IMG/VR virus record: IMGVR_UViG_3300029750_000003
Location: 1 to 45,646 of that record
Source: a virus
DNA: 45,646 bases
Strand: one strand, 5' to 3'
Positions 3,450 through 37,292 of this stretch are shown here, in pieces (within the stretch, counting starts at the first letter, position 1; each line of letters begins with the position of its first letter). The notes below the pieces were generated by a model. It was not told the DNA's origin and did not search any database. It worked only from the letters and a program-made list of their open reading frames with translations. The position numbers and the translations under genes were made by a program.

Positions 3450-5888
3450 TCACACAATTAGCCGACGGCCAAGCTTGTCCAGAACAACGAGGCCATTTCT
3501 GTCTTTCACGGGGCCAGATACCTTTTTTTTAGGTGCGCCATAGTAAACAATTACACATCCATCCGCTCCGTCTCCGCCAGATCCTCCTTTACCACCATGT
3601 CCACCAGAAGAACCATCCGCGGTTGTGTATTTGGTGTATGTTTCCCAAAGCTGAATACGAGACCCACCGCCGCCGCCGCCACCGCCGCCGCCATTTCCTC
3701 CGTCTCCTCCGCATCCGTATAGCGTAGCTATAGACTTTGAATCGCCTGATGCTCCGTTTCCTCCAGATCCGTAAGAAGATGGATTTTGGTCGTTTATCCC
3801 TCCTTGCCCTCCAGGAGAATTATAAGAAGAGCCACCGCCACCACCGCCGCCGTATCCTTTTTGCCATGCAATTCCATAGTTTGGACTTTTGTTTGTCTTA
3901 TAACGATATCCAGGAACGTCTTTAGGGTTTTCTGTGTAATTATTCCCAACAAGTTCTTCTATACGATACTGTGAACTTCCAGACCCAACAAGTGTACAAA
4001 AATAATTAGGGCTTGTACCTGTTGCCTTTATGGTAGCAGATTTAAAGTCGCTTAGCCTCCACTCTCCAGTTTTTGTGTCAAAAGACGACTTTGTATATCC
4101 AGAAATTGTTTCTCCGATTGTAAATCTTGCGGATGAAGATCCTCCATCAACTTCACGCCAACTGTGCGGTGTAGAGCCTCCACTATAACTTCCGGCTTTG
4201 CCCCCAGCGCCACCAGGTATATCTCCTGAATTTTCTCCACTGTCACCTTTCAATAGTTCATAGGCAGTTGATTCCCCTCCGTTTCCTCCATTGGCTCCAT
4301 CGGCTCCGATGTCTCCTGTTTTTGCATAAGTTTCTTTTGTTATGATGTCTGTGTATCCGGCACCTGTCGAATCTCCATCACCACTTGAATAAACCATCCC
4401 ACCTATCGAAATAGTTGTTTCTGTCCCGATAGATCCTTCTGCCCCATTAGCTATCCCTCCAGTTCCTCCAGCCCCACACTGGAATTGAAGGGTCCTATCA
4501 TCTCCGATTTCAAGATCTACTGTAAGAAATTTGCCCCCTCCTCCTCCGTGCCCCCCATTTCCACCAGATCCACCTTTCCCAAAAACTCCAATGCCAGTTC
4601 CGCCATTCGAAGCACTAGCAGATGCACCATCATCACCAGGTTCTCCGTCCATTCCGGCTTGACCTCCGTTACCAGCTCCGATTACGACAACACGCACATT
4701 TACTGCCTGATCAGGTATTTGCCATGTACCGCTACCGGACAAAACAATTCGATTTTCTAATATCTCAACGTCCTCCGTCTGCGGTGGCTTATATCCAACA
4801 AGCATTTTTGAAGTTGACTTTAATGTATTTGAAATGTTAATATCTTCTATTTCAATGCAGGCCGTAACTGGTTCTTTGTTATATGGGTCCCACGTCAACA
4901 CACGGTTTCCTGTTGATTCCCCTTTATAGACAACTGGTGCTTGGATAGATTGAGCATGCTTATAGTAATTTTTCATTCGGTCTGCGACAGCCGCAGAGTT
5001 TATGAGCGATACCAACGTAGCATTTTCAACCTTCTTTACATTCGGCTCTTTGGCTGAAACAATATCACGTATGATTTGGCTTTTGTTGTGTGTATACTTT
5101 GTTCCAGTAAGCCTTCCGGAACCTGAAGATAGTTTTGCGTAGTTGGCTCCACTCTCTAAAATAGTAAAGCCAGATGCGGATAGATTAAAAACAGGCTCTT
5201 CAAATGTGATAATACTGCCTGCTTCTGTGGCCCCTTCAAAAAGTGTAGATGACTCACCAGATTTTATATATTGGTGTTCTGTAACAATTACTTGGGTTAC
5301 TTTGGCCGCGTTAGTGACGCTCGGGCCATGATACATTCGGTCTAAACCAAGGTTCCCGCTAATTCCATCCCAAAGGGCCGCAATCCGAAGAACTCCATTT
5401 AGATCAGTTCGAATAGTTGCGCCAATTGCAAATAGAACCTGTGACAAGTTATCCCTTGCTGTAGCGATAGGCAACCAACCATACAATTTTATGTCTGCTA
5501 AATTTGTTTTGATCTCGTATGGTATTGTGCCGCATATGGAAGCAAGAAGTTCGGATGCAGTCTCTCCAGAGTAGATTCCTCCATAATGCTGATTTTCAGA
5601 TAAAAGCCCAATTGCGCTTGTTGCAGATATCTTATATGTATTAGGGCCATTCCGGTCAATGGATTTCACATAAAACACACCGGTCTGAACGTCATCATAA
5701 AAATAAACAATTGGAGCGTTTCTTTCAAACTCTGTAATTGTTCTGTCCTCAGTCTCAATTACGACTGATAAGGTATTGGCTTCCAGAGAGGAAGATAGAA
5801 GAGATGTTGCAAGATGAAGATTTCCGCTTTTAATTTTGTTGCCCTCAAAAACTCTGTCGCCATACACAATTTTGTTTTTGTTTGCCAT
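3450..5888 (-). CDS. Tail-associated (Tal/hub position) protein with a C-terminal glycine-rich domain
   Basis: 812 aa, immediately after the Dit-position gene. The N-terminal ~380 aa look like phage minor structural or tail-endopeptidase-type regions. From ~aa 385 (GTWQIPDQAVNVRVVVIGAGNGG) the sequence is glycine-rich to the end (..GADGCVIVYYG..). Confidence 0.75.
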   Translation of the reverse strand: MANKNKIVYGDRVFEGNKIKSGNLHLATSLLSSSLEANTLSVVIETEDRTITEFERNAPIVYFYDDVQTGVFYVKSIDRNGPNTYKISATSAIGLLSENQHYGGIYSGETASELLASICGTIPYEIKTNLADIKLYGWLPIATARDNLSQVLFAIGATIRTDLNGVLRIAALWDGISGNLGLDRMYHGPSVTNAAKVTQVIVTEHQYIKSGESSTLFEGATEAGSIITFEEPVFNLSASGFTILESGANYAKLSSGSGRLTGTKYTHNKSQIIRDIVSAKEPNVKKVENATLVSLINSAAVADRMKNYYKHAQSIQAPVVYKGESTGNRVLTWDPYNKEPVTACIEIEDINISNTLKSTSKMLVGYKPPQTEDVEILENRIVLSGSGTWQIPDQAVNVRVVVIGAGNGGQAGMDGEPGDDGASASASNGGTGIGVFGKGGSGGNGGHGGGGGKFLTVDLEIGDDRTLQFQCGAGGTGGIANGAEGSIGTETTISIGGMVYSSGDGDSTGAGYTDIITKETYAKTGDIGADGANGGNGGESTAYELLKGDSGENSGDIPGGAGGKAGSYSGGSTPHSWREVDGGSSSARFTIGETISGYTKSSFDTKTGEWRLSDFKSATIKATGTSPNYFCTLVGSGSSQYRIEELVGNNYTENPKDVPGYRYKTNKSPNYGIAWQKGYGGGGGGGSSYNSPGGQGGINDQNPSSYGSGGNGASGDSKSIATLYGCGGDGGNGGGGGGGGGGSRIQLWETYTKYTTADGSSGGHGGKGGSGGDGADGCVIVYYGAPKKKVSGPVKDRNGLVVLDKLGRRLIV

Positions 5889-5904
5889 CGCCTATCCTCA
5901 CTTT

Positions 5905-6300
5905 TTACGGCTTGACCTGTGCGTCTATCGGAACAAAGCTTACCTCTATTTCTCCCCAATAATTTACGCTACCTTCTACCTTCTCCATGTCTTGAGATGC
6001 GCTAGTATAATACGCCTCGTAGGAGATGGTTGTCTGTCCGTCCGCAGCCTCCAACATAACGCTATCATCGACTGAGTGTTGGTACAGATAGTCCCAAAAG
6101 GTATCCAGCCCTTCGTAATTGTCTCCTCTGCGAAACACTGTAATCTTATGTCCAAGATAGGTTCCAATAACATCACGTATCATTCGACCGGAAAGCACTC
6201 GGCCAGCATTATCTCCATCTAGTACATTGAAACTTCGATTATAAGTCGAAATTGCAACATCTGCGTCAAACTCAATGCCGTTCAATTTGATATAGCTCAT
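5905..6300 (-). CDS. Tail protein in the distal-tail-protein (Dit) position; short, 131 aa
   Basis: ORF track. Abuts the tape measure stop (6301). Confidence 0.55.
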   Translation of the reverse strand: MSYIKLNGIEFDADVAISTYNRSFNVLDGDNAGRVLSGRMIRDVIGTYLGHKITVFRRGDNYEGLDTFWDYLYQHSVDDSVMLEAADGQTTISYEAYYTSASQDMEKVEGSVNYWGEIEVSFVPIDAQVKP

Positions 6301-8892
6301 TTAACCCTCCACCAAATTTACGCCGATACGCTGAACTTCGCTCTGAGTTGCTTGATAAGATACGCGACCAAGCACCTGCTTGTCGATTTCCAAGATAACT
6401 GTATTGGAGCCGCCGCCACCATATCGCTGCATCCCACGGGCAACAGCGGCTTCAATCTCAGATGTTGGAGCCTCTATATTTGTCCCGCTCTTTTGATCTC
6501 CCAGTACGGTGAGGAACTCTTTATTAGGCGGTATGACCGCGCCTTTTGCAAGGGCAGGAACGTCATCAATTGAAAGCCTTGGTACTGACATTCGGCCTAA
6601 GCCTGATCTGGCTGAATAAGAACTCCCCTTCGTACTGCCACTTCCAAGCTTAAGCGCTGTCCCCCCACCTAAAAGTGCAATCCCGGCCAGTATGAATAGA
6701 GGGTTTAATGTCATTGCACCAATAGCGACTAATGCAATTCCAGCAAGCAGCATTGCTGTAGATACCCATCCAGCCACCTCTTCAAGATGTAATGTTTCTA
6801 CCCAACTACGAAACGTCCCACTTTCATTCCCAACGACAAATCCAGCAATAAGGAGTGCACATCCACCTAAAAACATAAGAACGTTCATAGTCATTAGCCC
6901 GATTGCAACAAGCCCGATTCCTACAAGCAAAATTGCAATCGTTACATACTCCATTACTTTTTCAAGGCCTAATGTTTCAACCCAATCCTGCAAATGATCA
7001 TCATTTATTGCGGCAACAATTCCAAGGCCGAGCACCACTGCACCAGCAATTAGCAAAATAAGATTTCCAGTAGCAGCCGCAATAGCTACCATTACGATGC
7101 CTACCAAAAGGATGGCGACAGATACCCATTGAACAACGGTTGTAAGTTTCAGTTTTTCCCACCATGCCATCAGTGTCTGTTCTCCAATTACTTCTGCTGT
7201 CACCCCTGCTCCTAGAAGAACTGCTCCAGCGATAACCATAAAGATATTCCCCATTGCCGCTCCAATACAGATGAGGGCAAATCCAGCTATTTGCATTGCA
7301 GCTGTTACATAGTCAAACGCGGAATCAAGTCCCAGCGTCTTTGCCCAAGATTCAAAAACTCCACTCTCACTCCCTACAAAGACGCCAGTTGCAATCAAAG
7401 AAATACCAGATATAACCATAAGAATATTCCCTAGTCCTGCGCCAATACAAATAAGGGCAAATCCAGCTATCAATAGAGCGGCAGTTATAAACTGGGCTGC
7501 TCTAGAAAGTCCAAGCGCTTCCGCCCAATCTTGCATCATTCCGCTTTGATATGCATAAGCCACAGCAACTCCGATCAAAGCTAGTCCAGCCACAACAAGT
7601 AAAATATTTACAGTTGAAGCTCCAATAGCAACCATGGCGATGCCGCCGAGTATAATTGCCAATAACACAAACTCTTGCACACTATTTAAACCAAGTGCAT
7701 CAACCCAAGACTGTAATTGTTCATTTTCTCCGGAGAAATCAATGCCAGCTCCAAGTAAAAGTAAACCAGAAAGAACCAGCACTAAACTCCCTATAGATGC
7801 TCCTATAGCTACAAGTGCAATACCACCTAGCATTAATGCAATTGGCACCCAAGCAGATACACTCGCCATCATTTCTTGGAGCCATCCGCTATTCATACCT
7901 TCTTGAAAGGCAGAAAAGTCTGGCCCAATATCTTGATTAGAAGATTCACTTTTATTTCTGCTCCCCGAAAGCTGGTTGATTTCATCAAAAGAAGCGAGCG
8001 ATTTCCCGGCCTCCTCAGCCGCCTCACCCGTTTTTTCAAGTGCTTCTGTTTCCTCATACAGATTTTCAGCGGAGTCCGCAGCTTTCTCTGCTGTTGTACC
8101 AAAAAGCGCAGCAGTAATCCGGGCGGCCATTGAAATTATACGGGCCAACATATCGACAAAATTTGTAAATGCTGGTATAATGACCTCAATCATCGGTTGA
8201 GCGAGCGTCAGGAGAGCCCCTTTTAGGCGTGCAATAGACGCTCTAGCCTCGTCATTTGTTTTGATGACTTTCCCCATCCATTCACGGAACTTCGCAAGAG
8301 CTTGTGTAATGACCGTGAATACAAGCGCGCTTCTGATAACTTCACGCATACGAGAAGAAAACTTGCTTGCGCTCTTTTGCGCTCTATCTACTGATTTTGC
8401 CATTTTGGCGGCGGCAGGGCCGGACTTTGCCATGTTCTGCTGGAGCCCTCCGGCTTCCTCTTTTGCCAGGTTCAACTTTCTTTCTAAGCCAGAAATTTTG
8501 GAATCATAATCTGAAAGCGCTTTTTCAGCCTGCCTCCACTCTTTCTCAATTGCGTCAACCTTTTCTTGTTGCTTTTTCAATTTGGAATCGACCATAGGCC
8601 TGTCAGAATAGGCACGCATATAGTCATCAGCGGACGAACCAGGTTTCATGGCGGCATTGATAGCATTCTGTTCGTCCTGGAGCATGGATAACTGCTTCCT
8701 GGCCTCCTCCAACTCCGCATTTACAACGTTGAGGTTTTCTACTAAAGGAAACCTCCCCTGCTTTTTGGACGTAAGTTGATCTTCGAGCGATTGGATTTTC
8801 TTAGCAAGCTGATTCAGCTCTTTTTGTGCTTTCTTATTGTCAATATTGGTTTCAATGACGATGGAGCCGTCAGCGGCCACATTAAACACCAC
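6301..8892 (-). CDS. Tape measure protein
   Basis: 863 aa, the largest ORF in the tail module. Coiled-coil N-terminus (DGSIVIETNIDNKKAQKEL..), long hydrophobic repeat core, C-terminal PALAKGAVIPPNKEFLTVLGDQ motif. GTG start. Confidence 0.9.
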   Translation of the reverse strand: MVFNVAADGSIVIETNIDNKKAQKELNQLAKKIQSLEDQLTSKKQGRFPLVENLNVVNAELEEARKQLSMLQDEQNAINAAMKPGSSADDYMRAYSDRPMVDSKLKKQQEKVDAIEKEWRQAEKALSDYDSKISGLERKLNLAKEEAGGLQQNMAKSGPAAAKMAKSVDRAQKSASKFSSRMREVIRSALVFTVITQALAKFREWMGKVIKTNDEARASIARLKGALLTLAQPMIEVIIPAFTNFVDMLARIISMAARITAALFGTTAEKAADSAENLYEETEALEKTGEAAEEAGKSLASFDEINQLSGSRNKSESSNQDIGPDFSAFQEGMNSGWLQEMMASVSAWVPIALMLGGIALVAIGASIGSLVLVLSGLLLLGAGIDFSGENEQLQSWVDALGLNSVQEFVLLAIILGGIAMVAIGASTVNILLVVAGLALIGVAVAYAYQSGMMQDWAEALGLSRAAQFITAALLIAGFALICIGAGLGNILMVISGISLIATGVFVGSESGVFESWAKTLGLDSAFDYVTAAMQIAGFALICIGAAMGNIFMVIAGAVLLGAGVTAEVIGEQTLMAWWEKLKLTTVVQWVSVAILLVGIVMVAIAAATGNLILLIAGAVVLGLGIVAAINDDHLQDWVETLGLEKVMEYVTIAILLVGIGLVAIGLMTMNVLMFLGGCALLIAGFVVGNESGTFRSWVETLHLEEVAGWVSTAMLLAGIALVAIGAMTLNPLFILAGIALLGGGTALKLGSGSTKGSSYSARSGLGRMSVPRLSIDDVPALAKGAVIPPNKEFLTVLGDQKSGTNIEAPTSEIEAAVARGMQRYGGGGSNTVILEIDKQVLGRVSYQATQSEVQRIGVNLVEG
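6643..7890 (-). repeat. Seven tandem ~60-aa (about 180-nt) hydrophobic modules inside the tape measure gene
   Basis: Protein-level periodicity: W-x-(E/D/K)-x-L-(G/K/H)-L ... GIALVAIGA ... AG..LLG recurs at W337, W396, W456, W516, W578, W637 and W697. Confidence 0.85.
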
Positions 8893-13508: not shown

Positions 13509-14480
13509 TTAACCCCCCGCCGGTGCGTAAACAGCAAAAGGGAAGGCGTTCTCATTGCCGACGTTGAAGGCGTTGATGGGGTTGGGAATCTCCCAGCCCA
13601 GCCGCATGACGGCGCGGAGGGCCACCATGTCGTTCTGCATCAGGTTATAAAGGATATTGCCAGTGGTGGGATCTTGCACCACGCCGCTATCGAAAATCTT
13701 AAAGGTCATGTCCTGTCGGATGGCATAGACCAACTGGCTCCAGTCACCCACGATAGCCAAAGATTCCTCCGGGTCGTAAGCGCCGTTCACGGGGAAGTAC
13801 ATGCTCATGCCGTCCAGCGCGTAGCGGGTATCTCCCTGCATATCGGTCTTGAAAATGGGCTGGCCGTTCTTGTCCACAAGGCCGCGCAGCTTGGCGCGCA
13901 TCTGAATGGCAGCCATCACGCCGTTGGGGATATAACCGCTCTCCTCCACCTTGGCAATCACGCCACCCTCACCCATGATGTCCTTGAAAATATCGCTGGT
14001 AGCGGTCACAACAGCGCTCGCGGTAGTGGCCGAAGGGACAAGGCCATCACGCCAAGAAGTCGGCTTGTCCGTGCCGTACAGAATAGCGGCGTCGATGACC
14101 TTTCCGAATGCCTCCTGAAGACGGGGCCGCACCTCGCCCCAGATATCGTAATCGCTATCATCCAACACCGCTTCAGGAATGGGGACGATGACGGCGATTT
14201 CCTCGGCGTAGATTTTCTTCTTGTCCCACGCCATGTTGGTGGTCTTTTTGAGGGATGCCTTAGAGTCGGCTGCTCCGGTAGTAGCTTCACCGTTTACAAA
14301 ATAGGCGGTAGGCAGTGCATCCAGCACATTGAGGGTCTGCGTCTTACTGGTCATGTTGGGCAGTCGGCGGGCCATCCGCAGCACAGCGGACTCTGTTACG
14401 GCCCCCTGGATAATTTCACGGGTTACGGGCTCGGGAATAAGCCCGGAAAGTTTACTTCTGTCGATAATGTCAACAGCCAT
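13509..14480 (-). CDS. Major capsid protein (HK97-fold type)
   Basis: 323 aa, directly after the scaffold gene. Sequence character is typical of Firmicutes siphovirus capsid proteins. Confidence 0.85.
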   Translation of the reverse strand: MAVDIIDRSKLSGLIPEPVTREIIQGAVTESAVLRMARRLPNMTSKTQTLNVLDALPTAYFVNGEATTGAADSKASLKKTTNMAWDKKKIYAEEIAVIVPIPEAVLDDSDYDIWGEVRPRLQEAFGKVIDAAILYGTDKPTSWRDGLVPSATTASAVVTATSDIFKDIMGEGGVIAKVEESGYIPNGVMAAIQMRAKLRGLVDKNGQPIFKTDMQGDTRYALDGMSMYFPVNGAYDPEESLAIVGDWSQLVYAIRQDMTFKIFDSGVVQDPTTGNILYNLMQNDMVALRAVMRLGWEIPNPINAFNVGNENAFPFAVYAPAGG

Positions 14481-14493
14481 TTATGTTCTCCTT

Positions 14494-14934
14494 TCATTTC
14501 AGTGCGCCCCGGATCAGGGCGTTCATTACATCGTTTTCTCCTGTTTTTTGCGTCCCTCCGCCCACTGGAGCAGTCCAGTCAAAGGAAGTCTTCTTGCGGT
14601 CGGCGGTGAGCGCGTCCACGGCCTGCTCAAAGGTGGTCTTGTCGTCCACCATCTTCCCTGCCTTGAAGGCGATGAACTCCGCCTCTTCTCCGGTCAGGCC
14701 CTTAGAAAGTACATATTTTTCTTGCTTTAATTTTCCAAGTTCAGTTTTGCTCTTGTTCAACTCCTCTTCAAGGGCAGAAAAGTCCTCGGAAGATTTCATA
14801 CCGGAGCTTTTCTTGATTTCAGCGTCCAATTTTGCCTGAACAGTCGAAAGTGCCTTTGTGACTCTCCTGTCAAACTCCGACTTATATGTCGGGTCTTCCA
14901 GTATTTCGTCAAAAGTCATAATATCGTCTGCCAT
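14494..14934 (-). CDS. Scaffolding protein
   Basis: 146 aa, highly charged and helical. Sits immediately upstream of the capsid gene. Confidence 0.75.
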   Translation of the reverse strand: MADDIMTFDEILEDPTYKSEFDRRVTKALSTVQAKLDAEIKKSSGMKSSEDFSALEEELNKSKTELGKLKQEKYVLSKGLTGEEAEFIAFKAGKMVDDKTTFEQAVDALTADRKKTSFDWTAPVGGGTQKTGENDVMNALIRGALK

Positions 14935-14981
14935 ATTTACACTCCTTTATTTCCACTGCGTCATTCCCCACAGCGTTTTGC

Positions 14982-15053
14982 AAAAAAGAGCCATCTACCC
15001 AACAAGTGAGTAAATGGCTCTAATTACCCTTCTTTTGCGCCAATCCGCAAAAG
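14982..15053 (-). terminator. Two hairpins after the MuF-adjacent gene; the distal one is a rho-independent terminator
   Basis: Read on the minus strand: CTTTTGCG/CGCAAAAG (15053..15032), then AGAGCCAT/ATGGCTCT (15021..14987) followed by TTTTTT (14987..14982). Confidence 0.7.
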
Positions 15054-15068
15054 GTACACATTATTTAG

Positions 15069-15941
15069 TTAAAGTCTTTTTTTGCTACTTACCCTGTGAT
15101 TTAGCGCGTCATCATATTGTTGTTCCGTCCATCCATACAGTTCCATGAACGCCTGTTTCCCAATCTCCATCGCCTTGTTGTAGTCTTTGATGCTAAAGCT
15201 TTTTGTGCTGACAAGTTTAATGGATTTTGGGTCAAGAACTGGCTCGCCATCGCTCCCAATCGATACAACATCTCCAGTTACCGCATACATATGCTTGAAC
15301 GAATATTTAGGCGATTCCCAAACCGAAACGCCGTCCTCGGCTTCTCCTGTATCGTGGTTTTTTGATGCTCGCATTGTCCCGCTTTTCAGATATTCTATTT
15401 CAGCATCGTTATCCGTTCCACGGTAAAACAAACCCTCACGCTTTAATCCGGCTAATCTTAATGTCTCGGCCTCGACAATTCCGTGTAGTTTTGTATTCAT
15501 ATAATTGTTGTAGGAATAATCGTTCAGAACAATGCGCCCGTCTGAAAAAATTGTATTTACATTTTCATCGGATACATACTTCCCATCAACAAACCCAGAA
15601 GTATTGGGGGCCTTAAAAACAACTACTCCATCTGTATCGTTTTCAGGGATTTCTATTTTTTTACCAGCTCTATCGCCAGTCAATGTATACTCATTTGTTG
15701 AAGATGCTTGATAGGTGCCGCCTTCATCTTTACCGTAAATCCTTTGCGTTTCTCCATCCTTTAATCGAGTTGCTGTTTTTGCAGGATCGGCACTCTTCTT
15801 CTCACTTCTCTTTGGCTTTCTGTCATCACCAAACTTGCCGCTTTCCTTCATTGCGTCAGTTAAACTTTGACCTTTCTTGATAAAAACGCGCCGCCCACTG
15901 ATTGTCCGCCACACTCCATCTTCTGACGCCATAGATTTCAC
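15069..15941 (-). CDS. MuF-adjacent protein of unknown function (candidate virion-packaged cargo)
   Basis: 290 aa, AT-rich relative to its neighbours. N-terminal GVWRTISGRRVFIKKGQ motif is recalled from modules linked to MuF/gp7 head proteins. Has its own terminator. Confidence 0.75.
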   Translation of the reverse strand: MKSMASEDGVWRTISGRRVFIKKGQSLTDAMKESGKFGDDRKPKRSEKKSADPAKTATRLKDGETQRIYGKDEGGTYQASSTNEYTLTGDRAGKKIEIPENDTDGVVVFKAPNTSGFVDGKYVSDENVNTIFSDGRIVLNDYSYNNYMNTKLHGIVEAETLRLAGLKREGLFYRGTDNDAEIEYLKSGTMRASKNHDTGEAEDGVSVWESPKYSFKHMYAVTGDVVSIGSDGEPVLDPKSIKLVSTKSFSIKDYNKAMEIGKQAFMELYGWTEQQYDDALNHRVSSKKRL

Positions 15942-15971
15942 CTCATTTTAATTATACTAAACAGCACCTCA

Positions 15972-16121
15972 TTACACAAGGGTTTCATCTGTTTCTTTGT
16001 ACTTTATCCGCCTCTTCACTTCCAGAACCATAATGCGGCCTTTGTTCAGCTGTATCTGTGCATCGTTCCCTCGCTTAAGAATCTCGTTGATAGCGTCCAT
16101 AACCGCCTTTGTGTCATTCAT
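15972..16121 (-). CDS. Small hypothetical protein (49 aa; below the ORF-track cutoff)
   Basis: My translation: MNDTKAVMDAINEILKRGNDAQIQLNKGRIMVLEVKRRIKYKETDETLV. The ATG overlaps the MuF-like stop (ATGAATGA). Confidence 0.45.
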   Translation of the reverse strand: MNDTKAVMDAINEILKRGNDAQIQLNKGRIMVLEVKRRIKYKETDETLV

Positions 16122-17283
16122 AAAGTATCCTCATCCTTTCCCGCTGCAACGGCAGCTGTGCCGCCTCGCTGAACGCCTTGTATTCTGCATTTAACCGACG
16201 TATGCGGGCTGTTACCGCTTGGTAGTCCTCCGTTAGTCCAGCGGATTTGTATGCTGTCTGTTCCCGCTTCAACTTTCGGGCAGTTCGCTCGACCTGCCGC
16301 TGTTTCTGTGTGGCCTCATAAGCTGTGTAGTGCTTTCCCTCAAAATCCACGTCGTGCCCATCGTCTATGTGAGCGAGTTCTTCGTCGGTATATGTGCGCT
16401 CCATCACACCATCCACAAAAGCCATCCTGATATGGCGGCAGTTTGCACCCTCCAAGCCGTCCACATAGCCAAGCCCGCACACCTCATAAATGCTCGGATA
16501 CTTGTCTCCGGTCCTTACGGAGTACACCCGGCCCTGCCATGCCTTGTGGTTTTGCCAGCCAACACCCTTGTCCCGAGCCCCGATGTGGGCGGACACTTCA
16601 AAATAAGGTGTTTCCAGATACTCTGCGCTCTGCTCCGTGTACTTGGCACAGATCTGGGATACGCCTGTCATCACCGCCCTGCGGGCTGCCACGTCGATTT
16701 GGTCTCGGTGTCCGCTCTCATAATCCACGACCTTGATACCACTGTCCGCAAGCTGTTTGACGGCGCTTTTGATGGCCTGATTGTAAGAGATGGCCCTGCT
16801 CGTGATCTGCATTTCAGCGTTATCCAGCGCCCATTGATAGGCCCTGGCCGTGGGAAGCATCGTCCGCCCGTTGTCCACCAGAAAGCCCATAGAGCCGGTC
16901 ATGTTATGGAATGTCTGTTTGGTCTGCTCGTAGATAGCCCATGTGTCCTCGATGCTAACCAGTGTTTCCGGTGCAGTTACACCCGCAATGTCCATAACCT
17001 CCTGGTAGTACCGCTGGTTCCGCTCCGCCACGTCGTCCAAGAGCTTTTGCAAGTCCCGCTGGCTGATGTTTGCGGTGCTCTGGATGGCCTTTTCTATGTC
17101 CTTTAGGTCAATGCCATGGGAGCGGAGTGCCCGTATATCCTGCACCGTGACCTCGTTCAGCTCGCCGGATAATTTCAGGCGAGAACATATTTCCTCCAGG
17201 AGCGTCGCTTCCAGACTGCGGTATAGCTCGGCCAATTCTTCTGGAAGAGAGTCCAGAACTTCGGGATAGAATGGGTATTTCAT
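16114..17283 (-). CDS. Minor head protein, MuF / SPP1 gp7-like
   Basis: 389 aa, directly after the portal gene. VMTGVSQ...HIGARD...NCRH region resembles head morphogenesis proteins of this family. Confidence 0.75.
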   Translation of the reverse strand: MKYPFYPEVLDSLPEELAELYRSLEATLLEEICSRLKLSGELNEVTVQDIRALRSHGIDLKDIEKAIQSTANISQRDLQKLLDDVAERNQRYYQEVMDIAGVTAPETLVSIEDTWAIYEQTKQTFHNMTGSMGFLVDNGRTMLPTARAYQWALDNAEMQITSRAISYNQAIKSAVKQLADSGIKVVDYESGHRDQIDVAARRAVMTGVSQICAKYTEQSAEYLETPYFEVSAHIGARDKGVGWQNHKAWQGRVYSVRTGDKYPSIYEVCGLGYVDGLEGANCRHIRMAFVDGVMERTYTDEELAHIDDGHDVDFEGKHYTAYEATQKQRQVERTARKLKREQTAYKSAGLTEDYQAVTARIRRLNAEYKAFSEAAQLPLQRERMRILYE

Positions 17284-18698
17284 TCAATCTCGTTCTCCCC
17301 TTCCGTTGTCATGTCCTCCATCTTTGGCAGCATTTTCTTAGCCGTAGCCTCGTCCTCGTTGTACCACTTCATGCGGTACTCCCACGGGTTCATAATGCCC
17401 GCCGCAAGGTCCTGACGGTCATTATTCCGCTCGGTGGTCTTATCCTCGATGATAGAGTCATCAAAGTCAATGGTAACTTTAGCATCTTCATTCAGCCCGG
17501 CGCCCATGGCTGCATTCCCAAGCCGAAGAATAATATGGCACAACTCTGTAATGGCCTGTTCCAAAATGATTTCATGCTTTTTGATGGTCCTAAACATGGT
17601 GGAGTTTTCGCTGATGACCTGGGTGGCTGTGGTAATGCTCCCCTGGTCGAAGCGGTAATGGTTTTCTCCAAAGCCACACTTGCTGGACAGTAGATTCAGT
17701 TGGTCTTGGATACCCGTGTTGTGCTCCTGGGTACGTAGTGTCATGTCGATGGGCGTGATGACCGCACCGTCACTTACATCCTCCGGGAGTACATAGTAAG
17801 CCAAGTCGTCCGGGTCAAAAAATGGCTCTCCGTCAAGGTCTTTGGTTGCAGACGGCTTGACCATGATGCGCTTTTTTCCAAGGACGAACTCATTGACGTA
17901 GCTATCATAGGCCACATCTACGCCTTTGAGAACATCGATGGCGTTTGCATAGACAGAAACCCCCAGCGGAGAATCGTCAAAATTGTTGGCAATATTAGGC
18001 CTGTCAATAACAAACTGCCTCTGATCTGATCCGGTATGTACCACAGGAGGGACTGCCTCAAACCCTGGAATGTCGGCCAAAGACAGTTCTGCATCCACAT
18101 TGTTATTGCGGTAATGATAGATGCGATTCTCGATGTCGTATAAGCCGTCTACCTTGTGATGAATCTGGAGATAACAATAATCCTCACCGTTGACGGTCAC
18201 GATGCTATCAAATGCGCAATCGGTAATAATACCGTTCTGCCATGCCAGCGGCCAGATATGCTCCACGGTCACATAATCCATTACAATGCCGCTTGCGCTT
18301 CCAGGAATGGGACCAAACTCCGTCGCTTCCATGCCTACTACTCGCGGTATAAAGGCCACTGTCCCGAGTGCAAACGCTTTTTCCTGCATCTCATTTACCT
18401 GGACCAGAAAGTTGTTTTCGGCGAACACGCGGTCAATAAATTCCTGCTCCCGCTGCCCCTCCAGAGTGATTTCCACCTTTTCATTCATCAGGAGGTTTGC
18501 CCAATCCTCTGGGATCTTCTTGCCCATGTTGAGAGTATACCGCTTGCATCGAACCATGCTCGTTCCGTTTCGAACCTTGTACCGATGGAAGCCCTTCACA
18601 TCTCCAATATACCAGCTTTTCCATTCCTGCACTTTTCGGTAAAAGTATTCGCTGATGGTGGCAAAGCCCAGCTCTTTCAGCTTATCATTTATGTTCAA
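17280..18698 (-). CDS. Portal protein
   Basis: 472 aa, between terL and the MuF-like gene, with 4-nt overlaps on both sides. Confidence 0.85.
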   Translation of the reverse strand: MNINDKLKELGFATISEYFYRKVQEWKSWYIGDVKGFHRYKVRNGTSMVRCKRYTLNMGKKIPEDWANLLMNEKVEITLEGQREQEFIDRVFAENNFLVQVNEMQEKAFALGTVAFIPRVVGMEATEFGPIPGSASGIVMDYVTVEHIWPLAWQNGIITDCAFDSIVTVNGEDYCYLQIHHKVDGLYDIENRIYHYRNNNVDAELSLADIPGFEAVPPVVHTGSDQRQFVIDRPNIANNFDDSPLGVSVYANAIDVLKGVDVAYDSYVNEFVLGKKRIMVKPSATKDLDGEPFFDPDDLAYYVLPEDVSDGAVITPIDMTLRTQEHNTGIQDQLNLLSSKCGFGENHYRFDQGSITTATQVISENSTMFRTIKKHEIILEQAITELCHIILRLGNAAMGAGLNEDAKVTIDFDDSIIEDKTTERNNDRQDLAAGIMNPWEYRMKWYNEDEATAKKMLPKMEDMTTEGENEIE

Positions 18699-19933
18699 GC
18701 AGTTACCCCCATTCTTCTGAATACACGCTCAAGTGCATACCTTGTAGCGTCAATAAGGTGGTTATTCTCGTCAGGATACCCGCTGATGATCTCCCCATCC
18801 TTATTTCGCTCATACTCATAATTCACAAACTCGCTATAAGCGTTTGGAGTCCTTCTGCGGTCAATGACAATCTTCCGCTTCTGGAGCCACTTCATACCAT
18901 ACTCCACGCTTCCAGGCCCCTTAATTGCCTCTTTGGCCGGAAGGCCCATCGCCCGATAGTCTGCTGATGATTTAGGCTCTGCGCTGTCACAGGTAATGTA
19001 AGCATCCTTGTATCCTTTGGAAAGAATCAACTTTGCGCTCGCCTCGTTGGTCAGCTTATTTTGGTATATCTCGTCCATTAGGTATATTGTCTCCCTGGCT
19101 CGGTCATAGTGGAGGCGGATAAAGGCAAATGGATCAGGGAACCAGCCCCAGTCCACACCTTGATAGATACGGTCAAAGGAAGCGAACTCTTCGTCCGTGA
19201 TTCCCCTCAACTCCAGATTCTCAAATACGTTGCCGCCGGTGCCGACCGCTTCGCCCAAGTATTCATGGCGGTATGCCCGCTCATCCGTGGATTTCAGATG
19301 TTCGGCCTCTGCCAGAAACTGCGCCCCAAGCCATTCAGGCGGGGCCTCCAAGTATGTGCTCTTATGGCACAGCCTGTCCGCTCTTTCTTCCAAGCTGTCT
19401 TTGTTGGCCCAGTTGTCCCGGCTGATGGGTGGATTGTAGCTCTCAAAGTTCCAGAACTTCGACCCGCCGCGCATGGTAGATTGTAAAATGGTTCTAATCT
19501 CCGCCCGACCGGAAAACTGATCTTTTTCTTCAAAGTGTGTTACAGCGATATATCCGAACGGAACCTTGATGGACTTTATTTTCATGGGGTCATCAGCGCC
19601 CCGGAACATGATTTTCTGCCCAGTCGGCTTATAAATCAGCTCCATAGGCTGAACCTTAGCGTCCCAGTATGCCGCCATACCCAATTCTCCGATTGCCCAT
19701 AGATATTGTGCATATACGCTGTCCCGGATGGTGTTCGCCACTTTGCGAAGTACCAAGGCGTGGGTGTTTGAATTGGTCAGCAAGATAAGCGGCACCAGCA
19801 GGGAGACGCAGGAAGATTTAAGCGAGCCTCGGCCACCAGACAAATCATAGTGTGTGTGTCCGTGTTGGAATACGTCACGAGCCAGTAGGTGGAATGCAGG
19901 TCCAAGGACGGACGATAAACGAATCTCAGACAT
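18695..19933 (-). CDS. terL: Terminase large subunit (PBSX/Terminase_3-like, headful type)
   Basis: 412 aa. N-terminal Walker-A-like GGRGSLKS. Position after terS. Confidence 0.9.
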   Translation of the reverse strand: MSEIRLSSVLGPAFHLLARDVFQHGHTHYDLSGGRGSLKSSCVSLLVPLILLTNSNTHALVLRKVANTIRDSVYAQYLWAIGELGMAAYWDAKVQPMELIYKPTGQKIMFRGADDPMKIKSIKVPFGYIAVTHFEEKDQFSGRAEIRTILQSTMRGGSKFWNFESYNPPISRDNWANKDSLEERADRLCHKSTYLEAPPEWLGAQFLAEAEHLKSTDERAYRHEYLGEAVGTGGNVFENLELRGITDEEFASFDRIYQGVDWGWFPDPFAFIRLHYDRARETIYLMDEIYQNKLTNEASAKLILSKGYKDAYITCDSAEPKSSADYRAMGLPAKEAIKGPGSVEYGMKWLQKRKIVIDRRRTPNAYSEFVNYEYERNKDGEIISGYPDENNHLIDATRYALERVFRRMGVTA

Positions 19934-34479: not shown

Positions 34480-34510
34480 GCATTTATTTCAACCCAGTTG
34501 AATTTTTCTC

Positions 34511-34539
34511 TTGCATTTTGATTATCTCCATGATATACT
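34511..34539 (+). promoter_or_regulatory. Repressor promoter of the genetic switch
   Basis: TTGCAT (34511-34516), 17 nt, TATACT (34534-34539). Operator-like CAACC(A/C)AGTT(G) sites at ~34459-34471 and ~34489-34502. Confidence 0.7.
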
Positions 34540-34567
34540 TCGTTGTACAGAGTAGGAGGTGTAAATA

Positions 34568-34939
34568 GTGAAAACCATAGCTGAGCGAATTATGGAAGTG
34601 GTTGAAGAAAAGGGCGGAAACAAAAGTGATTTTGCCCGTAAAATTAACGTTACTCCAGCATACATTTCCAAATTAGGAAAAGATCCAAACTGCATTCCTA
34701 GCGATCGCACCATTGCCGACATCTGCCGTGAATTTAACATCTCCGAGCTCTGGCTGCGTACCGGAGAAGGAGAGCCCCATATCCAGAGGGACGAGGACGA
34801 GGAGTTCCTCGAAGTCACGGAGCAGATCCACATGTCTGATGATGATCTGATTAAGCGGATTATTAAGGCATATTGGTTTATGGAGGACGACGAAAAAGCC
34901 GCCATCAGAAAACTGATAGACGGCTTTACAAAAAAATAA
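34568..34939 (+). CDS. CI-like repressor (XRE HTH, no S24 peptidase domain)
   Basis: GTG 7 nt after AGGAGGT. KSDFARKINVTPAYISKLGK HTH. Divergent from the early operon. 123 aa. Confidence 0.75.
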   Translation: MKTIAERIMEVVEEKGGNKSDFARKINVTPAYISKLGKDPNCIPSDRTIADICREFNISELWLRTGEGEPHIQRDEDEEFLEVTEQIHMSDDDLIKRIIKAYWFMEDDEKAAIRKLIDGFTKK

Positions 34940-34966
34940 GGCCCCGGTTTTCCGGAGCCTTTTTTA
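34931..34966. terminator. Bidirectional terminator between the repressor and the convergent small gene
   Basis: A-run, then GGCCCCGG-tttt-CCGGAGCC, then T-run. Confidence 0.7.
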
Positions 34967-35167
34967 TCACTTATTATGTAGTTTTTCGAGGACGAGGGCG
35001 CGCGTAAGGAGCGATTTCAAATAAGTTTCATTTTTGTTCCGCTCCGTGACAAGTTCAATCTCTTTTTTAAGCATATCAACAGTTTCTCCATTCGGCGTCA
35101 TTTCGCGCCCTCCTCCCAGTTTGTGCCACTCCCAATCAGAACTATGTAATTTTTCTAATTTTGGCAC
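34967..35167 (-). CDS. Hypothetical protein (66 aa) with its own promoter
   Basis: GTG start 9 nt after GAGG. ORF track. Confidence 0.55.
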   Translation of the reverse strand: MPKLEKLHSSDWEWHKLGGGREMTPNGETVDMLKKEIELVTERNKNETYLKSLLTRALVLEKLHNK

Positions 35168-35259
35168 ATTTTGTAGCCTCTGTTTGCACTATACGCCCTG
35201 TTTACCTTATATTCTGTCAGGTTTTGTCGATGCTGGAAAATTTGTTTCTGTTGACTATT

Positions 35260-35287
35260 ATTATAGAACATTAGTTCCATTTTTCAA
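35260..35287 (-). promoter_or_regulatory. Promoter for the 34967..35167 gene
   Basis: Minus strand: TTGAAA (35287..35282), 16 nt, TATAAT (35265..35260). Confidence 0.55.
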
Positions 35288-35426
35288 GATGGGAATATCA
35301 CCAAAAAAGAAGTGTAAATTTTCTGTGCGCGTTTGATCGCTTCCGATATAATGCACGGATTATCGGACTTTTGCATGAGCGTAAAAGAACCGCCAGAGTG
35401 CGGTAAAATAGAGAGGAGAATGGGAT

Positions 35427-35825
35427 ATGGAAAATGAAGCTATCAACGGGACTAACCCAGAAGTCGGCCAGACCACTCCACCCGAATCGCCCAAAAAGTT
35501 TTGTAAATATTGTGGCGAGCGCATCGACATTGACTGTGTTGTTTGCCCTAAGTGCGGAAAACAAATCGAGGCGCTCAGGCAAGACCCGTCTCAGGTAATT
35601 ATCAATAACAATGGAAGCGATTACCCCTATAAAAGTAAAACCGTCGCTCTGCTCTTGTCTATTTTCGTTGGCGGTCTTGGGATACACCGTTTTTATGTCG
35701 GGAAACTCGGAACCGGAATTATCTGGTTGTTGACTGCTGGTTGTCTTGGAGTCGGCTGGATTATCGACATCATTATGATCGCCGTAGGCAGTTTCCGGGA
35801 CAAGGCGGGCATGCCGTTGCAGTAA
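35427..35825 (+). CDS. Zinc-ribbon plus TM2-domain membrane protein
   Basis: CKYCGERIDIDCVVCPKCG, then KTVALLLSIFVGGLGIHRFYVGKLGTGIIWLLTAG...GWIIDII, the typical TM2 pattern. Confidence 0.7.
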   Translation: MENEAINGTNPEVGQTTPPESPKKFCKYCGERIDIDCVVCPKCGKQIEALRQDPSQVIINNNGSDYPYKSKTVALLLSIFVGGLGIHRFYVGKLGTGIIWLLTAGCLGVGWIIDIIMIAVGSFRDKAGMPLQ

Positions 35826-35845
35826 ATAGAAAGGGTAGATATAGT

Positions 35846-36148
35846 ATGCTGGATGAAAAAGATTTGCAGGCAATCGCACAGTTGATGGAGAAGCAGAAAC
35901 AAGACATCATGTCTGAAACGAAGGGCTTGTTGGAACAGCAGAAACAGGACATCATGCACGATGTAAAGGTTTTATTGGACACGGAGGTCACAACCCGATT
36001 TAACCTTTTGGCCGAGGGACAGCAGGTCATTATGGACGCCATCACGCCAAAAAGTGAAATCGAGGAACTGCGAAACGAAGTATCCGTGCTTAAGCTGGCG
36101 ATCCGCACCATGAATCAGGAAATCGCCGAACTGAAAAAAGCGCAATAA
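35846..36148 (+). CDS. Coiled-coil protein (100 aa) with an internal repeat
   Basis: ATG at residue 36 of the track ORF. (E/L)KQKQDIM(S/H) is duplicated. Confidence 0.55.
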   Translation: MLDEKDLQAIAQLMEKQKQDIMSETKGLLEQQKQDIMHDVKVLLDTEVTTRFNLLAEGQQVIMDAITPKSEIEELRNEVSVLKLAIRTMNQEIAELKKAQ

Positions 36149-36191
36149 AAATACCGCCCCCGGTGCTGGAACACCAGGAGCGGCTCACATA

Positions 36192-36232
36192 GGGGTGATA
36201 AGGTTTGGCCGCCATTATCACCCCTTTATTTT
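36192..36232 (+). terminator. Strong hairpin terminator just upstream of the integrase gene
   Basis: GGGGTGATAA (36192-36201) pairs with TTATCACCCC (36215-36224), followed by TTTATTTT. Confidence 0.75.
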
Positions 36233-36254
36233 ACCAGAATAGGGGGAAAAGTCA

Positions 36255-37286
36255 ATGAGAAGAGCGAATGGAACTGGAAGTATTGTAAATCTTGGGCCAA
36301 ACCGCAGAAACCGATACGCCGTCAGGGTGTCGTATTTGGAGCGGCCCGGACTGTGGAAGCAAAAGTATCTATCCTACCACAGAACTGCCAAAGAAGCACA
36401 GGAGGCCCTTGACAAATATTTGGCATCTAATATCCCGGCAAAGTCACTCGCCGTTACCTGGGGAGACGTATACAATCAGTGGTCTGCCAAAAAGTATGCA
36501 AAGGCAGGAACTGCCTCTATCGCCAGCTATAAGGCTTCTTGGGCGCGCCTCTGTGTGCTAGAAAAAAAGGATATGTGCAAGGTTACGATTGACGACCTAC
36601 AATCTATTATTGACCAAGACGAGGCAAACGGATTATCGAAATCTAGTATTAGCAATGACAAAATGCTTATGAAAGCACTTTTTAAGCACGCAACAGAGCG
36701 CGATATCGTGTATAAAGACTATTCCGCTTTTGTGGAACTTCCAGGAGTTGAAGCAAAGCACGAAAAGGGTGCTTTTGATGATATCACAATGCGTAAATTG
36801 GAGAACCTGGCGTCCTCTGGATTCCCTTGGGCTGATACCGTACTAATGCTATGTTATACTGGATTCCGGGTGTCCGAGTTTTTGGGGCTTACCAGATTCT
36901 CGTATCATTCGGAGGCGAATTATTTGCAAGGAGGTCTAAAAACCCAGGCCGGGAAAAATCGCATTGTCCCGGTGCATCCTAAAATCATGCCATATCTGAC
37001 CAAGTGGCTGTCCAGGGGCGGTAAAACTATTATCTGTGATGATGACGGGAATGCAATCCCCGCATACAAATACCGCCCGCTATTCTCTAAAGTTATGGAA
37101 GAATTAGGACTTCCTTCCGCAACCCCTCATTGGTGCAGACATACCGCCGCGTCTCGGATGAGGATGGCCGGGGTGGACGAAGTCGCTATAAAGCGTATCT
37201 TAGGGCATTCCGATGGAGATGTTACCGAGCACTATACGCACGTAGATGTTTCGTTTTTGGCTAAAGAGATCCAGAAGGTTTCCTAA
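36255..37286 (+). CDS. int: Tyrosine integrase
   Basis: 343 aa. Catalytic-type motifs GFRVSE (Arg), HWCRHTAAS (H-x-x-R) and LGHSDGDVTEHYTH (His..Tyr). Confidence 0.9.
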   Translation: MRRANGTGSIVNLGPNRRNRYAVRVSYLERPGLWKQKYLSYHRTAKEAQEALDKYLASNIPAKSLAVTWGDVYNQWSAKKYAKAGTASIASYKASWARLCVLEKKDMCKVTIDDLQSIIDQDEANGLSKSSISNDKMLMKALFKHATERDIVYKDYSAFVELPGVEAKHEKGAFDDITMRKLENLASSGFPWADTVLMLCYTGFRVSEFLGLTRFSYHSEANYLQGGLKTQAGKNRIVPVHPKIMPYLTKWLSRGGKTIICDDDGNAIPAYKYRPLFSKVMEELGLPSATPHWCRHTAASRMRMAGVDEVAIKRILGHSDGDVTEHYTHVDVSFLAKEIQKVS

Positions 37287-37292
37287 GTATTT

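Follow-up and report, generated by a model that had tools for sequence, protein, structure and literature searches.

The minus-strand gene at 15069-15941 of the window (the whole 45,646-nucleotide stretch analyzed, IMG/VR virus record IMGVR_UViG_3300029750_000003) encodes a three-part protein composed of an N-terminal tag, a disordered linker and a confidently modelled globular body. This 290-amino acid (aa) protein is probably, though not securely, a modular accessory effector that represents a split, non-covalent variant of the MuF-toxin/head-packaged-effector theme, with its packaging, partner and activity predicted. An earlier, sequence-only reading had proposed an effector associated with MuF and had taken the N-terminal motif as a linker. 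The effector idea gains strong comparative support from the shared tag, the common genomic slot and the fusions of the body to MuF domains, whereas the linker interpretation does not hold.

The phage is probably a temperate SPP1-like siphophage of Faecalispora or related Clostridia, the temperate lifestyle being indicated by an integrase gene (PF00589, 36255-37286). The head genes are on the minus strand and include TerL (18695-19933), an SPP1-type portal (17280-18698) and the major capsid protein (MCP, 13509-14480). Directly 3' of the portal gene is a complete, separate open reading frame (ORF) for a 389-aa MuF-like minor capsid protein (16114-17283, minus strand), which matches Phage_min_cap2 (PF06152, E 5.6e-81) over positions 3-364 of the 366-position profile and phrog_581 'minor head protein' (E 8e-87). 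Behind this gene, the minus strand does carry the two reported ORFs, one of 49 aa (15972-16121) with an 8-nt overlap at the MuF stop codon, and the 290-aa ORF. The scaffolding protein gene (14494-14934, minus strand; phrog_2303 'head scaffolding protein', E 5.7e-6, with a weak DUF4355 match) forms the downstream edge of the slot, and most related loci have a scaffold gene or large ORF 3' of the tag gene. No prohead protease gene is detected among the genes from TerL to MCP by Pfam or PHROG. The MuF-like protein is of the same class as SPP1 gp7 and 80alpha gp44, which are low-copy, portal-associated and ejected with DNA (PMC7290940), while the 290-aa protein is not homologous to them. The MuF-like neighbour is a plausible vehicle for the cargo and is presumed to be the docking or co-packaging partner of the 290-aa protein.

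The true start of the 290-aa ORF is probably the ATG at 15932, yielding a 287-aa protein (MASEDG...), as a GAGGTG ribosome-binding site read from the sequence (15939-15944, minus strand) is upstream and homologs begin at that position. The 49-aa ORF has homologs of 43-44% identity at the same position in L002, which has an ADP-ribosyltransferase (ART) cargo, and in L010, which has a tag-only gene; it is absent from L006 and L008. Its occurrence beside both an ART cargo and a tag-only gene argues that it is not a cargo-specific immunity protein, and a role as immunity protein or chaperone is set aside, given this lack of cargo specificity and its absence from some loci. The ORF appears to encode a small conserved protein to which family searches (Pfam, PHROG, NCBIfam and PADLOC) assign no role.

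The tag (MASEDGVWRTISGRRVFIKKGQSLTDAMKESGKF) covers residues 1-34 of the 287-aa protein (15831-15932, minus strand) and includes the motif recognized at the outset, GVWRTISGRRVFIKKGQ, which does open the 290-aa ORF at residues 9-25. The consensus of ~30 residues is GVWRTISGRRVFIxxGQSLTDAMxESGKF (also given as GVWRTIsGRRVFIxxGQSLtDAMxESGKF), with G, W, T, G, R, F, I, Q, A and K invariant in 68 proteins of unrelated C-termini. The tag is basic (R/K-rich), is without signal-peptide character, and is modelled by AF2 as a beta-hairpin (residues 9-22) and a helix (27-33) at a pLDDT of 70-78. Among the 30 codons compared, 12-18 synonymous differences are observed versus 3-5 non-synonymous ones; judged from these counts, the tag is under purifying selection at the level of the protein, not the DNA. 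In L004, 27 of 30 tag residues are identical to those of the window, and the portal, MuF and MCP are without BLASTP similarity. A mere DNA recombination site is rejected as the sole explanation of the tag, since its synonymous sites are saturated and conservation at the DNA level alone cannot account for it. The tag nevertheless coincides with the 5' homology arm of the cassette described below.

All 90 tag matches are at or near the N-terminus, 89 of them with the whole module and one (P0021) with the second half only, and the C-termini of 67 are unrelated. With IMG/VR and GTDB loci added, at least 180 complete stand-alone tag proteins fall into 38 unrelated C-terminal clusters. The recognized cargos include ADPrib_exo_Tox, ART, ART-PolyVal/DUF3990, a DRAT-like match, Zeta_toxin, PBECR1 and ATLF-like domains, as well as HExxH zincin-like proteases (assigned from sequence and a weak Pfam match). 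The PBECR1 cargo is an RNase, and several ADP-ribosyltransferase families are found among the cargos. Between proteins with ARTs, zeta toxin, PBECR1 and other domains, the tag is 80-93% identical. A comparison of what follows the MuF-like gene in relatives thus strongly supports the effector idea of the sequence-only reading, as the tag is found with diverse cargos and mostly in the same slot. L002-L013 keep one arrangement, which runs from portal and MuF through optional small ORFs to the tag gene, scaffold and MCP; a clear MuF-like gene is directly upstream of the tag gene in 10 of 16 GTDB loci, and a MuF gene is upstream in 62 of the 77 evaluable IMG/VR loci. In most tag loci checked, the tag protein is encoded in Firmicutes phages with MuF on one side and the scaffold gene on the other. 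By tblastn against 50,697 GenBank phage records, no tag is detected at E<=1; MT835513 carries just the C-terminal half of the cargo. The tag motif strings gave no match in a literature search, and the tag is not mentioned in the available portions of the MuF-toxin and polyvalent-protein papers (including PMC5512222 and PMC9503650).

The relationship of the tag to MuF appears to be one of substitution. The MuF(PF06152)-cargo junctions of P0095 and P0102 are without the tag, and a pattern scan detects no tag in other fusion proteins; based on the fusions examined, the tag seems to be an alternative to covalent linkage with MuF. A profile search with the 42-column tag alignment returns short proteins only (34-74 aa), which are too short to show any MuF fusion. 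The motif once viewed as a linker of MuF-cargo fusions is instead the N-terminal module of stand-alone proteins encoded beside MuF. Tag-only minigenes of 43 aa (L010, several contigs) and 58 aa (L035) suggest that the tag may have its own function other than cargo loading. The N-terminus of the scaffolding protein, the one part conserved in both the window and L004, is rejected as the tag partner because at least two unrelated scaffold types are found in tag-bearing phages. In some of these phages, MuF, portal and MCP diverge beyond recognition.

The tag is joined to the body by a Lys/Glu/Ser-rich disordered linker (15765-15830, minus strand; residues 38-59 of the 290-aa ORF) that has a pLDDT <50 at residues 38-56 and varies in length and sequence among orthologs. 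The body is composed of a beta-rich N-subdomain with a long helix (15447-15764, minus strand; residues 60-165) and a conserved core domain (15072-15446, minus strand; residues 166-290). The N-subdomain is modelled at a pLDDT of 87-97 (strands at 65-139, helix at 141-164) and is conserved in closer relatives only, MuF-fused forms included. The core domain matches 216 representative proteins (E<=1e-3) and is defined by the motifs FYRGTDN, S-x-NH-x-TGE-x-EDG(V/L)SV and GSDGEP(L/V)L, with R174, S193, E202, S206, G223, G229, D231 and E233 invariant. The AF2 model of the whole protein (pLDDT 84.7, pTM 0.76), as a predicted hairpin-helix, disordered segment and globule, fits a tag-linker-cargo design.

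Known families do not account for this body. The 290-aa protein has no Pfam match at E<=1 and none in PHROG, NCBIfam or PADLOC, and no known toxin family is matched in Pfam, NCBIfam or PADLOC. A PDB sequence search finds no match for the single protein or for a 36-sequence core profile, and Foldseek of the pLDDT-85 model versus the PDB gives a best E of 0.35 with TM<=0.13; OB/S1-like matches to the N-subdomain are weak and not significant. Thus, the early impression that the C-terminal part carries no nameable domain is upheld across Pfam, PHROG, NCBIfam and the PDB, and neither a head decoration nor a protease function emerges from the Foldseek and remote-homology searches. The body is instead related to segments of other phage proteins. 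It is homologous (E 1e-27 to 1e-39) to the C-terminal extensions of eight MuF-domain proteins, in which it is fused C-terminal to MuF PF06152 (P0095 and P0102) or MuF PF04233 (six proteins), and it is fused to the prohead protease XkdF (PF14550) in P0100. The body domain also occurs inside polyvalent proteins of 2.9-4.1 kaa with ART-PolyVal and PBECR5 (e.g., the 2874-aa P0093, in which PBECR5 and ART-PolyVal precede the body domain), and partial matches in BFVD likewise lead to giant phage proteins. ART-PolyVal and the body domain share one protein in P0144, P0145, P0165 and P0118, and are directly adjacent in the first two.

The gene differs from its neighbours in composition and is bounded by breaks in homology. 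Its GC content of 0.426, versus a window mean of 0.516 (sd 0.052), is in the lowest 4.6% of equal-sized windows, and its GC3 is 0.396 versus 0.57-0.70 in TerL, portal, MuF, scaffold and MCP, so that the gene is indeed AT-richer than the flanking head genes. The 134-nt spacer 5' of the scaffold gene folds into three hairpins (MFE -47.8 kcal/mol, z = -4.8), a stability that none of 200 shuffled versions reaches. Two hairpins had been reported after the gene, the second as a clear terminator. The terminator stands, but there are three hairpins and the middle one is the terminator: hairpin 1 (15032-15053) and hairpin 2, an intrinsic terminator with a 15-bp stem followed by UUUUUU (14987-15021), are within the variable cassette, while hairpin 3 (14954-14975) is part of the conserved scaffold-gene leader, all on the minus strand. 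DNA homology to L002, L006 and L015 on the 5' side is restricted to 15936-15831, and 14979-14810 is 81-84% identical to L006, L010 and L015. The homology to sister phages thus breaks at 15831/15830, the end of the tag, and at 14980/14979, just past the U-run of the terminator. Judging from these breaks, 15830-14980 (linker, cargo body and terminator) is a horizontally exchangeable swap cassette, with the tag-coding DNA proposed as its 5' homology arm and the scaffold-gene leader as its 3' arm. Recombination between these conserved sequences would exchange the cassette, and such exchange would explain the low GC and the private terminator.

In a common, widespread sister lineage, E159 of this gene is replaced by an amber stop, which indicates that the phage can persist without the cargo and that the gene is dispensable. 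Many other tag-bearing cargos are accompanied by a small immunity-like ORF that overlaps the cargo stop codon; by contrast, no minus-strand ORF of >=30 aa is found between 15069 and 14934, behind the window cargo. With no immunity gene downstream and a nonsense mutation in the sister lineage, a dispensable accessory effector fits better than a self-toxic toxin. Candidate promoters here and in relatives, together with the terminator of the gene, would permit expression outside the late operon. A possible sigma-A type promoter (15951-15979, minus strand) pairs TTGTGT (15974-15979) with TATAAT (15951-15956) across a 17-nt spacer; its -35 hexamer matches at 3/6 positions, which leaves the promoter under the threshold of the promoter scan and uncalled. 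At the same place in relatives, sigma-A promoters match at 12/12 (L035) and 11/12 (L036) positions, and a terminator follows MuF in L035.

These features also suit a moron or lysogenic-conversion gene, an autonomous, unpackaged gene expressed from the prophage that would aid the lysogen in phage defence or interbacterial antagonism. As with morons in the concept of Hendrix and Juhala, an extra gene of deviant GC with its own terminator, and possibly its own promoter, is inserted between conserved late genes and is dispensable, as seen in the amber lineage. The TTGTGT-17-TATAAT upstream of the gene, the perfect and near-perfect promoters of the relatives, the terminator after MuF in L035, the integrase within the window, and the immunity-like ORFs at many other tag cargos, reminiscent of polymorphic toxin loci (PMC5576092), are consistent with this explanation. 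Yet a moron has no need of a fixed slot, whereas the tag gene follows MuF in most loci checked and its conserved in-frame tag serves as one recombination arm. The body domain is moreover covalently joined in other phages to MuF and to the prohead protease, both proteins of the head interior, and the -35 in the window is weak; a promoter of its own is in any case compatible with packaging. A moron is accordingly considered unlikely, as is the associated view that the tag serves in oligomerization, regulator binding or export; the tag has no signal-peptide character. Less likely still is that the tag is a structural element of head assembly or DNA association (e.g., a portal/MuF accessory or DNA-end binder) to which C-terminal domains of little function are added. 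Intact tag-only genes in the same slot, the 58-aa one with a perfect promoter, the extreme conservation of the tag across otherwise unrelated head modules, and its basic character, given that the MuF-like gp44 of 80alpha binds DNA ends (PMC7290940), would fit such an element. The cargos, however, are recognizable toxins and enzymes under selection (ARTs, zeta toxin and RNase), many residues stay invariant in the window-cargo family at 53-66% identity, and the absence of the tag from all 50,697 GenBank phage records argues that it is not a general requirement of assembly.

An ART-like toxin overlooked by sequence methods is suggested by the FYRG...S-x-N...E-x-E pattern, in which FYRGTDN resembles the aromatic-R-G motif of C3/VIP2-type ARTs and S-x-N and E-x-E follow, and by the position of the body domain beside ART-PolyVal in several proteins. 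In known ARTs, the S-to-ExE spacing is ~35-50 residues; by contrast, it is ~7 residues in the body. No ART family is matched in Pfam even at E<=1, Foldseek of the high-confidence model finds no ART in the PDB, and, with a genuine ART domain next to it, the body is more plausibly the partner of an ART than another ART. An ART identity of the body is rejected on fold and motif spacing, with no R-S-E/H-Y-E triad at canonical spacing, and an overlooked ART is thus highly improbable.

The preferred reading, a split MuF effector, can be outlined as follows. The ~34-residue tag would act as a portable adaptor that draws the protein into the procapsid during assembly, with the MuF or portal minor-capsid complex as the likeliest route, and would replace the covalent MuF fusion used elsewhere for the same cargo domain. 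The flexible linker would tether the two-subdomain globular cargo, which is predicted to exit the head with the DNA and act in the newly infected cell. Its activity may be enzymatic or an ART-associated host modification, as suggested by the conserved R/S/N-H/E/S/D-E constellation and the repeated adjacency to ART-PolyVal.

The system shares with the MuF polymorphic toxins (Jamet et al. 2017, PMC5576092; Apk2 and Bxa, PMC12226406 and PMC11699363) the setting of temperate Firmicutes gut phages, a locus just downstream of the portal and MuF genes, and the combination of a conserved 'trafficking' part with highly variable C-terminal toxin/effector domains; the window cargo body is, in addition, homologous to bona fide MuF C-terminal extensions. 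It differs in that the 290-aa protein has no MuF domain (PF04233, PF06152, MuF3 or MuF4), that no small immunity ORF follows the window cargo, and that the conserved part is the N-terminal tag, which is not described in the available portions of that literature. MuF is a low-copy head/ejection protein, and effectors fused to it or encoded alone beside head genes are predicted to be packaged and injected (PMC5576092, PMC5512222, PMC9503650, PMC7290940 and PMC11699363). The solo polyvalent-protein domains of Iyer, Burroughs and Aravind (2017, PMC5512222; 2022, PMC9503650) are likewise found both in giant proteins and alone among head genes, as is the core domain here, and are proposed to be made with head proteins, packaged and injected. 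The core domain is outside the Pfam LPD, ART and PBECR families, and the N-terminal tag common to many solo effectors is an extra feature, not found in the consulted passages of these papers.

A functional analogy may also be drawn to the internal proteins and Alt of T4, in which a short N-terminal peptide is carried by unrelated cargos, ARTs included; prohead targeting is likewise predicted for the tag. In T4, the targeting peptide attaches to the scaffolding core, and the prohead protease cleaves it off. By contrast, the portal-to-MCP stretch here includes no protease gene, and the tag is longer, structured and without sequence similarity to the T4 peptide, so that the analogy is functional only.

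Tentatively, and with less confidence than the effector reading itself, the tag may be viewed as a previously undescribed portable head-loading module that defines a split MuF-effector branch in gut Firmicutes phages, with at least 38 cargo families recombining at the tag boundary and the window cargo as an enzyme-like new fold acting alongside, or in the manner of, the ARTs of polyvalent proteins. Gut phages are predicted to carry MuF-linked toxins and head-packaged effectors commonly; a short, extremely conserved tag on dozens of unrelated cargos in one slot makes the packaging question directly testable. If the tag is sufficient, it would offer a simple rule to find injected effectors in metagenomes, a handle for protein-delivering phages in which arbitrary proteins are loaded into siphophage capsids for delivery to Gram-positive gut bacteria, and a list of novel effector domains, among them the fold of the window cargo, which has no neighbour in the PDB. 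If the genes are instead morons, the same list would represent the prophage-borne weapons of gut Clostridia and Bacilli.

All genes of the head region lie on the minus strand of the window and include, in order: (i) the large terminase (18695-19933), SPP1-type portal (17280-18698) and MuF-like minor capsid protein (16114-17283; PF06152, E 5.6e-81), (ii) a 49-aa ORF (15972-16121) that overlaps the MuF stop codon and has no match in family searches, (iii) a 290-aa ORF (15069-15941) with the motif GVWRTISGRRVFIKKGQ at residues 9-25, and (iv) the scaffold (14494-14934), which precedes the HK97-fold major capsid protein (13509-14480) in transcription order. The two ORFs thus stand behind the MuF-like gene as the sequence-only reading had placed them. 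The true product of the 290-aa ORF is probably 287 aa, starting at ATG 15932, because its homologues begin MA(S/D)E and a GAGGTG ribosome-binding site precedes this codon.

The protein is modular, with an N-terminal tag shared by many otherwise different proteins. Of 90 database matches, 23 are full-length orthologues (53-100% identity), and the other 67 have only the first 30-40 residues in common (80-93% identity), followed by unrelated sequence. The tag is at or near the N-terminus of every protein that bears it, and 89 of 90 matches have it whole, the lone exception (P0021) retaining only the second half; ten tag positions are invariant over 68 proteins otherwise unrelated in sequence. Domains attached to the tag include ADPrib_exo_Tox, ADP-ribosyltransferase (ART), ART-PolyVal/DUF3990, Zeta_toxin, PBECR1 and anthrax-LF-like domains, with weaker matches to DRAT-like and zincin-like domains. 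A tag profile scan identifies 135 IMG/VR viral contigs and 16 genome assemblies, the latter mostly labelled Clostridia, Bacilli, Erysipelotrichaceae or Butyricicoccaceae (three of the 16 are labelled Gastranaerophilales or Muribaculaceae); four extra weak matches in Deltaproteobacteria-type MAGs (L030-L033) stand outside these 16. All sources pooled, the C-terminal regions of 180 complete tag proteins form 38 BLASTP clusters. The tag has no match among 50,697 GenBank phage records, and a literature search found no mention of its motif. Pairs of tag-coding sequences differ synonymously at 12-18/30 codons versus non-synonymously at 3-5/30, which shows purifying selection on the tag peptide. In one related locus (L004), BLASTP finds no resemblance between the portal, MuF-like and capsid proteins and their window counterparts, yet the tag is identical at 27/30 positions. 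The scaffold N-terminus was considered as a partner of the tag and rejected.

The synteny of tag genes is consistent. In all metagenomic loci inspected, the tag gene follows the MuF(-like) gene, with 0-3 small ORFs between them, and precedes the scaffold and capsid genes; across related phages, this slot holds tag genes with varied C-terminal domains. A tag-bearing ORF is called in 13 of 16 GTDB loci, 10 of these 13 having a clear MuF-like gene directly upstream, and of 77 IMG/VR loci that could be evaluated, 62 have an upstream MuF gene by profile search (≤700 nt away in 56 of the 62). Tag-only minigenes, encoding the tag and a short basic tail, also occur between MuF and scaffold (L010 5001-5132, 43 aa; L035 3501-3677, 58 aa).

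From 23 orthologues, AlphaFold2 gives a confident model (pLDDT 84.7, pTM 0.76) in which residues 9-22 form an N-terminal beta-hairpin, 27-33 a short helix and 38-56 a disordered linker rich in Lys, Glu and Ser. The globular body (60-290) comprises a subdomain dominated by beta-strands, then a long helix and an alpha/beta core. Consistent with the earlier remark that the C-terminal part has no nameable domain, the body is unmatched in Pfam, PHROGs, NCBIfam and PADLOC and, by single-sequence and profile search, among PDB sequences. Foldseek of the model against the PDB likewise finds no structural neighbour (best E 0.35, TM≤0.13), and nothing pointed to a decoration or protease role. An ART identity was rejected, as neither Pfam nor Foldseek against the PDB yields an ART match.

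An exhaustive HMMER search with residues 60-290 against 1.84 billion representative proteins finds 216 relatives, and by these sequences the body is a MuF-associated cargo domain. Among the best matches are fusions in which the cargo domain follows a full MuF domain of PF06152 (P0095, P0102) or PF04233 (P0098, P0099, P0101, P0104, P0107, P0110), a prohead-protease (XkdF, PF14550) fusion (P0100) and a polyvalent protein of 2874 aa in which PBECR5 and ART-PolyVal precede the cargo domain (P0093). The core (166-290) co-occurs with ART-PolyVal in P0118, P0144, P0145 and P0165, directly adjoining it in P0144 and P0145, and partial BFVD matches are giant phage proteins. The sequence-only reading had taken the motif for a linker; it is instead an N-terminal tag of stand-alone proteins and is absent from those MuF fusions in which the junction was inspected, so that tag and covalent MuF link look like alternative attachments of the same cargo. 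Other stand-alone copies carry N-terminal modules 'KH(P/K)RD..GRFA' or 'RWVTINGSHVLI...GGKF', the latter tag-like. The proteins in which the cargo domain goes with these other short modules are P0096, P0106, P0108, P0120, P0122, P0193, P0092 and P0100, and in the P0100 protease fusion the cargo domain lies between two 'FNPYHDS(K/R)GRF' motifs. These motifs may belong to a wider set of short docking/processing motifs ending G(K/R)F. The sole GenBank phage match, L001 (MT835513.1, 5864-6423), has MuF followed by only the C-terminal ~140 cargo residues, in a 101-aa ORF; this copy looks decayed, the tag and N-subdomain being missing.

Blastn comparison with sister phages that share the head module and carry other cargos (L002, an ART; L006; L015) delimits the cassette. 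Homology extends through MuF, covers the tag-coding segment 15936-15831 and resumes from 14979 onward, and none is detected to these three over 15830-14980. Since the flanks are homologous and the interior is not, the exchangeable unit is the linker, cargo body, hairpin 1 and terminator, with the tag and scaffold-gene leader as arms. Such a swap cassette explains the low GC and the mid-operon terminator. The cargo gene is AT-richer than the flanking head genes, as proposed: its GC is 0.426 versus 0.516 for the window (among the lowest 4.6% of equal-sized windows), and its GC3 is 0.396 versus 0.57-0.70 in five head-gene neighbours. Of two hairpins originally described, the second a terminator, the terminator-like element stands (15-bp stem, then six U) and the count does not: three hairpins form in the 134-nt spacer 5' of the scaffold gene (z = -4.8), and the terminator-like one is in the middle. 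The tail region (4000-8000) is likewise GC-poor (0.40-0.46), shows a strongly negative GC skew and has ORFs of 812 aa (3450-5888, no Pfam match) and 863 aa (6301-8892). A second low-GC island (34500-37500, GC 0.40-0.46), with an integrase and neighbouring ORFs lacking Pfam matches, is presumably a lysogeny module.

Small ORFs (41-110 aa) that overlap the cargo stop codon follow many other tag-bearing cargos, e.g., ARTs, and are candidate immunity proteins; loci include L002 (5663-5812), L014, L016, L021, L024, L025, L027 and L029. In a near-identical sister lineage (L037, L038), a single nonsense mutation, GAG to TAG at codon 159 (E159; window 15465-15467), leaves two ORFs of 155 aa and 101/120 aa in place of the cargo gene. 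The collection indexes the truncated product in 68 blocks, of which 21 contigs were read. An A7 homopolymer (coding strand, codons GKK) lies within the cargo gene at 15656-15662. The exact protein cluster of the cargo contains a Faecalispora jeddahensis MAG protein annotated hypothetical. Two cluster members (P0333, P0334) break exactly at the A7 tract, which suggests slippage or a sequencing artefact. From the nonsense lineage and the A7 variants, the cargo gene is judged dispensable.

Published work describes MuF as a low-copy head or ejection protein and holds effectors fused to MuF, or solo among head genes, to be packaged and injected (PMC5576092, PMC5512222, PMC9503650, PMC7290940, PMC11699363). 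Within this framework, the best explanation, and a somewhat probable one, is that the cargo gene product is a split, tag-mediated version of MuF cargo: the tag would bring the cargo protein into the procapsid, the cargo would leave the head by ejection, and it may carry enzymatic, host-directed activity. Several observations complicate a plain packaged-toxin reading. No immunity-like ORF was found 3' of the window's cargo, the nonsense lineage dispenses with the gene, and the 49-aa upstream ORF, missing from some loci, is otherwise conserved whatever the cargo (43-44% identity in relatives with other cargo or none). Tag-only genes belong here too, as do promoters: TTGTGT-17-TATAAT lies 22 nt 5' of the window's cargo start codon (read from the sequence, below the promoter-scan threshold), the L035 tag-only gene has a perfect extended TTGACA-17-TG-TATAAT (12/12) with a terminator directly upstream, and the L036 tag gene has an 11/12 promoter. 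The window also encodes a tyrosine integrase (36255-37286, plus strand, PF00589). Two rival readings are less probable: a moron that stays out of the virion and is driven by a promoter of its own is unlikely, and an assembly factor of small size to which other domains have been added is rather improbable.

What the sequence-only reading observed is borne out, and its MuF-linked virion-effector hypothesis is substantially strengthened by these comparisons. Systems of this kind are already known; the novelty lies in a tag common to many cargos, in the split architecture, in a cassette with defined limits and in an uncharacterised cargo fold.
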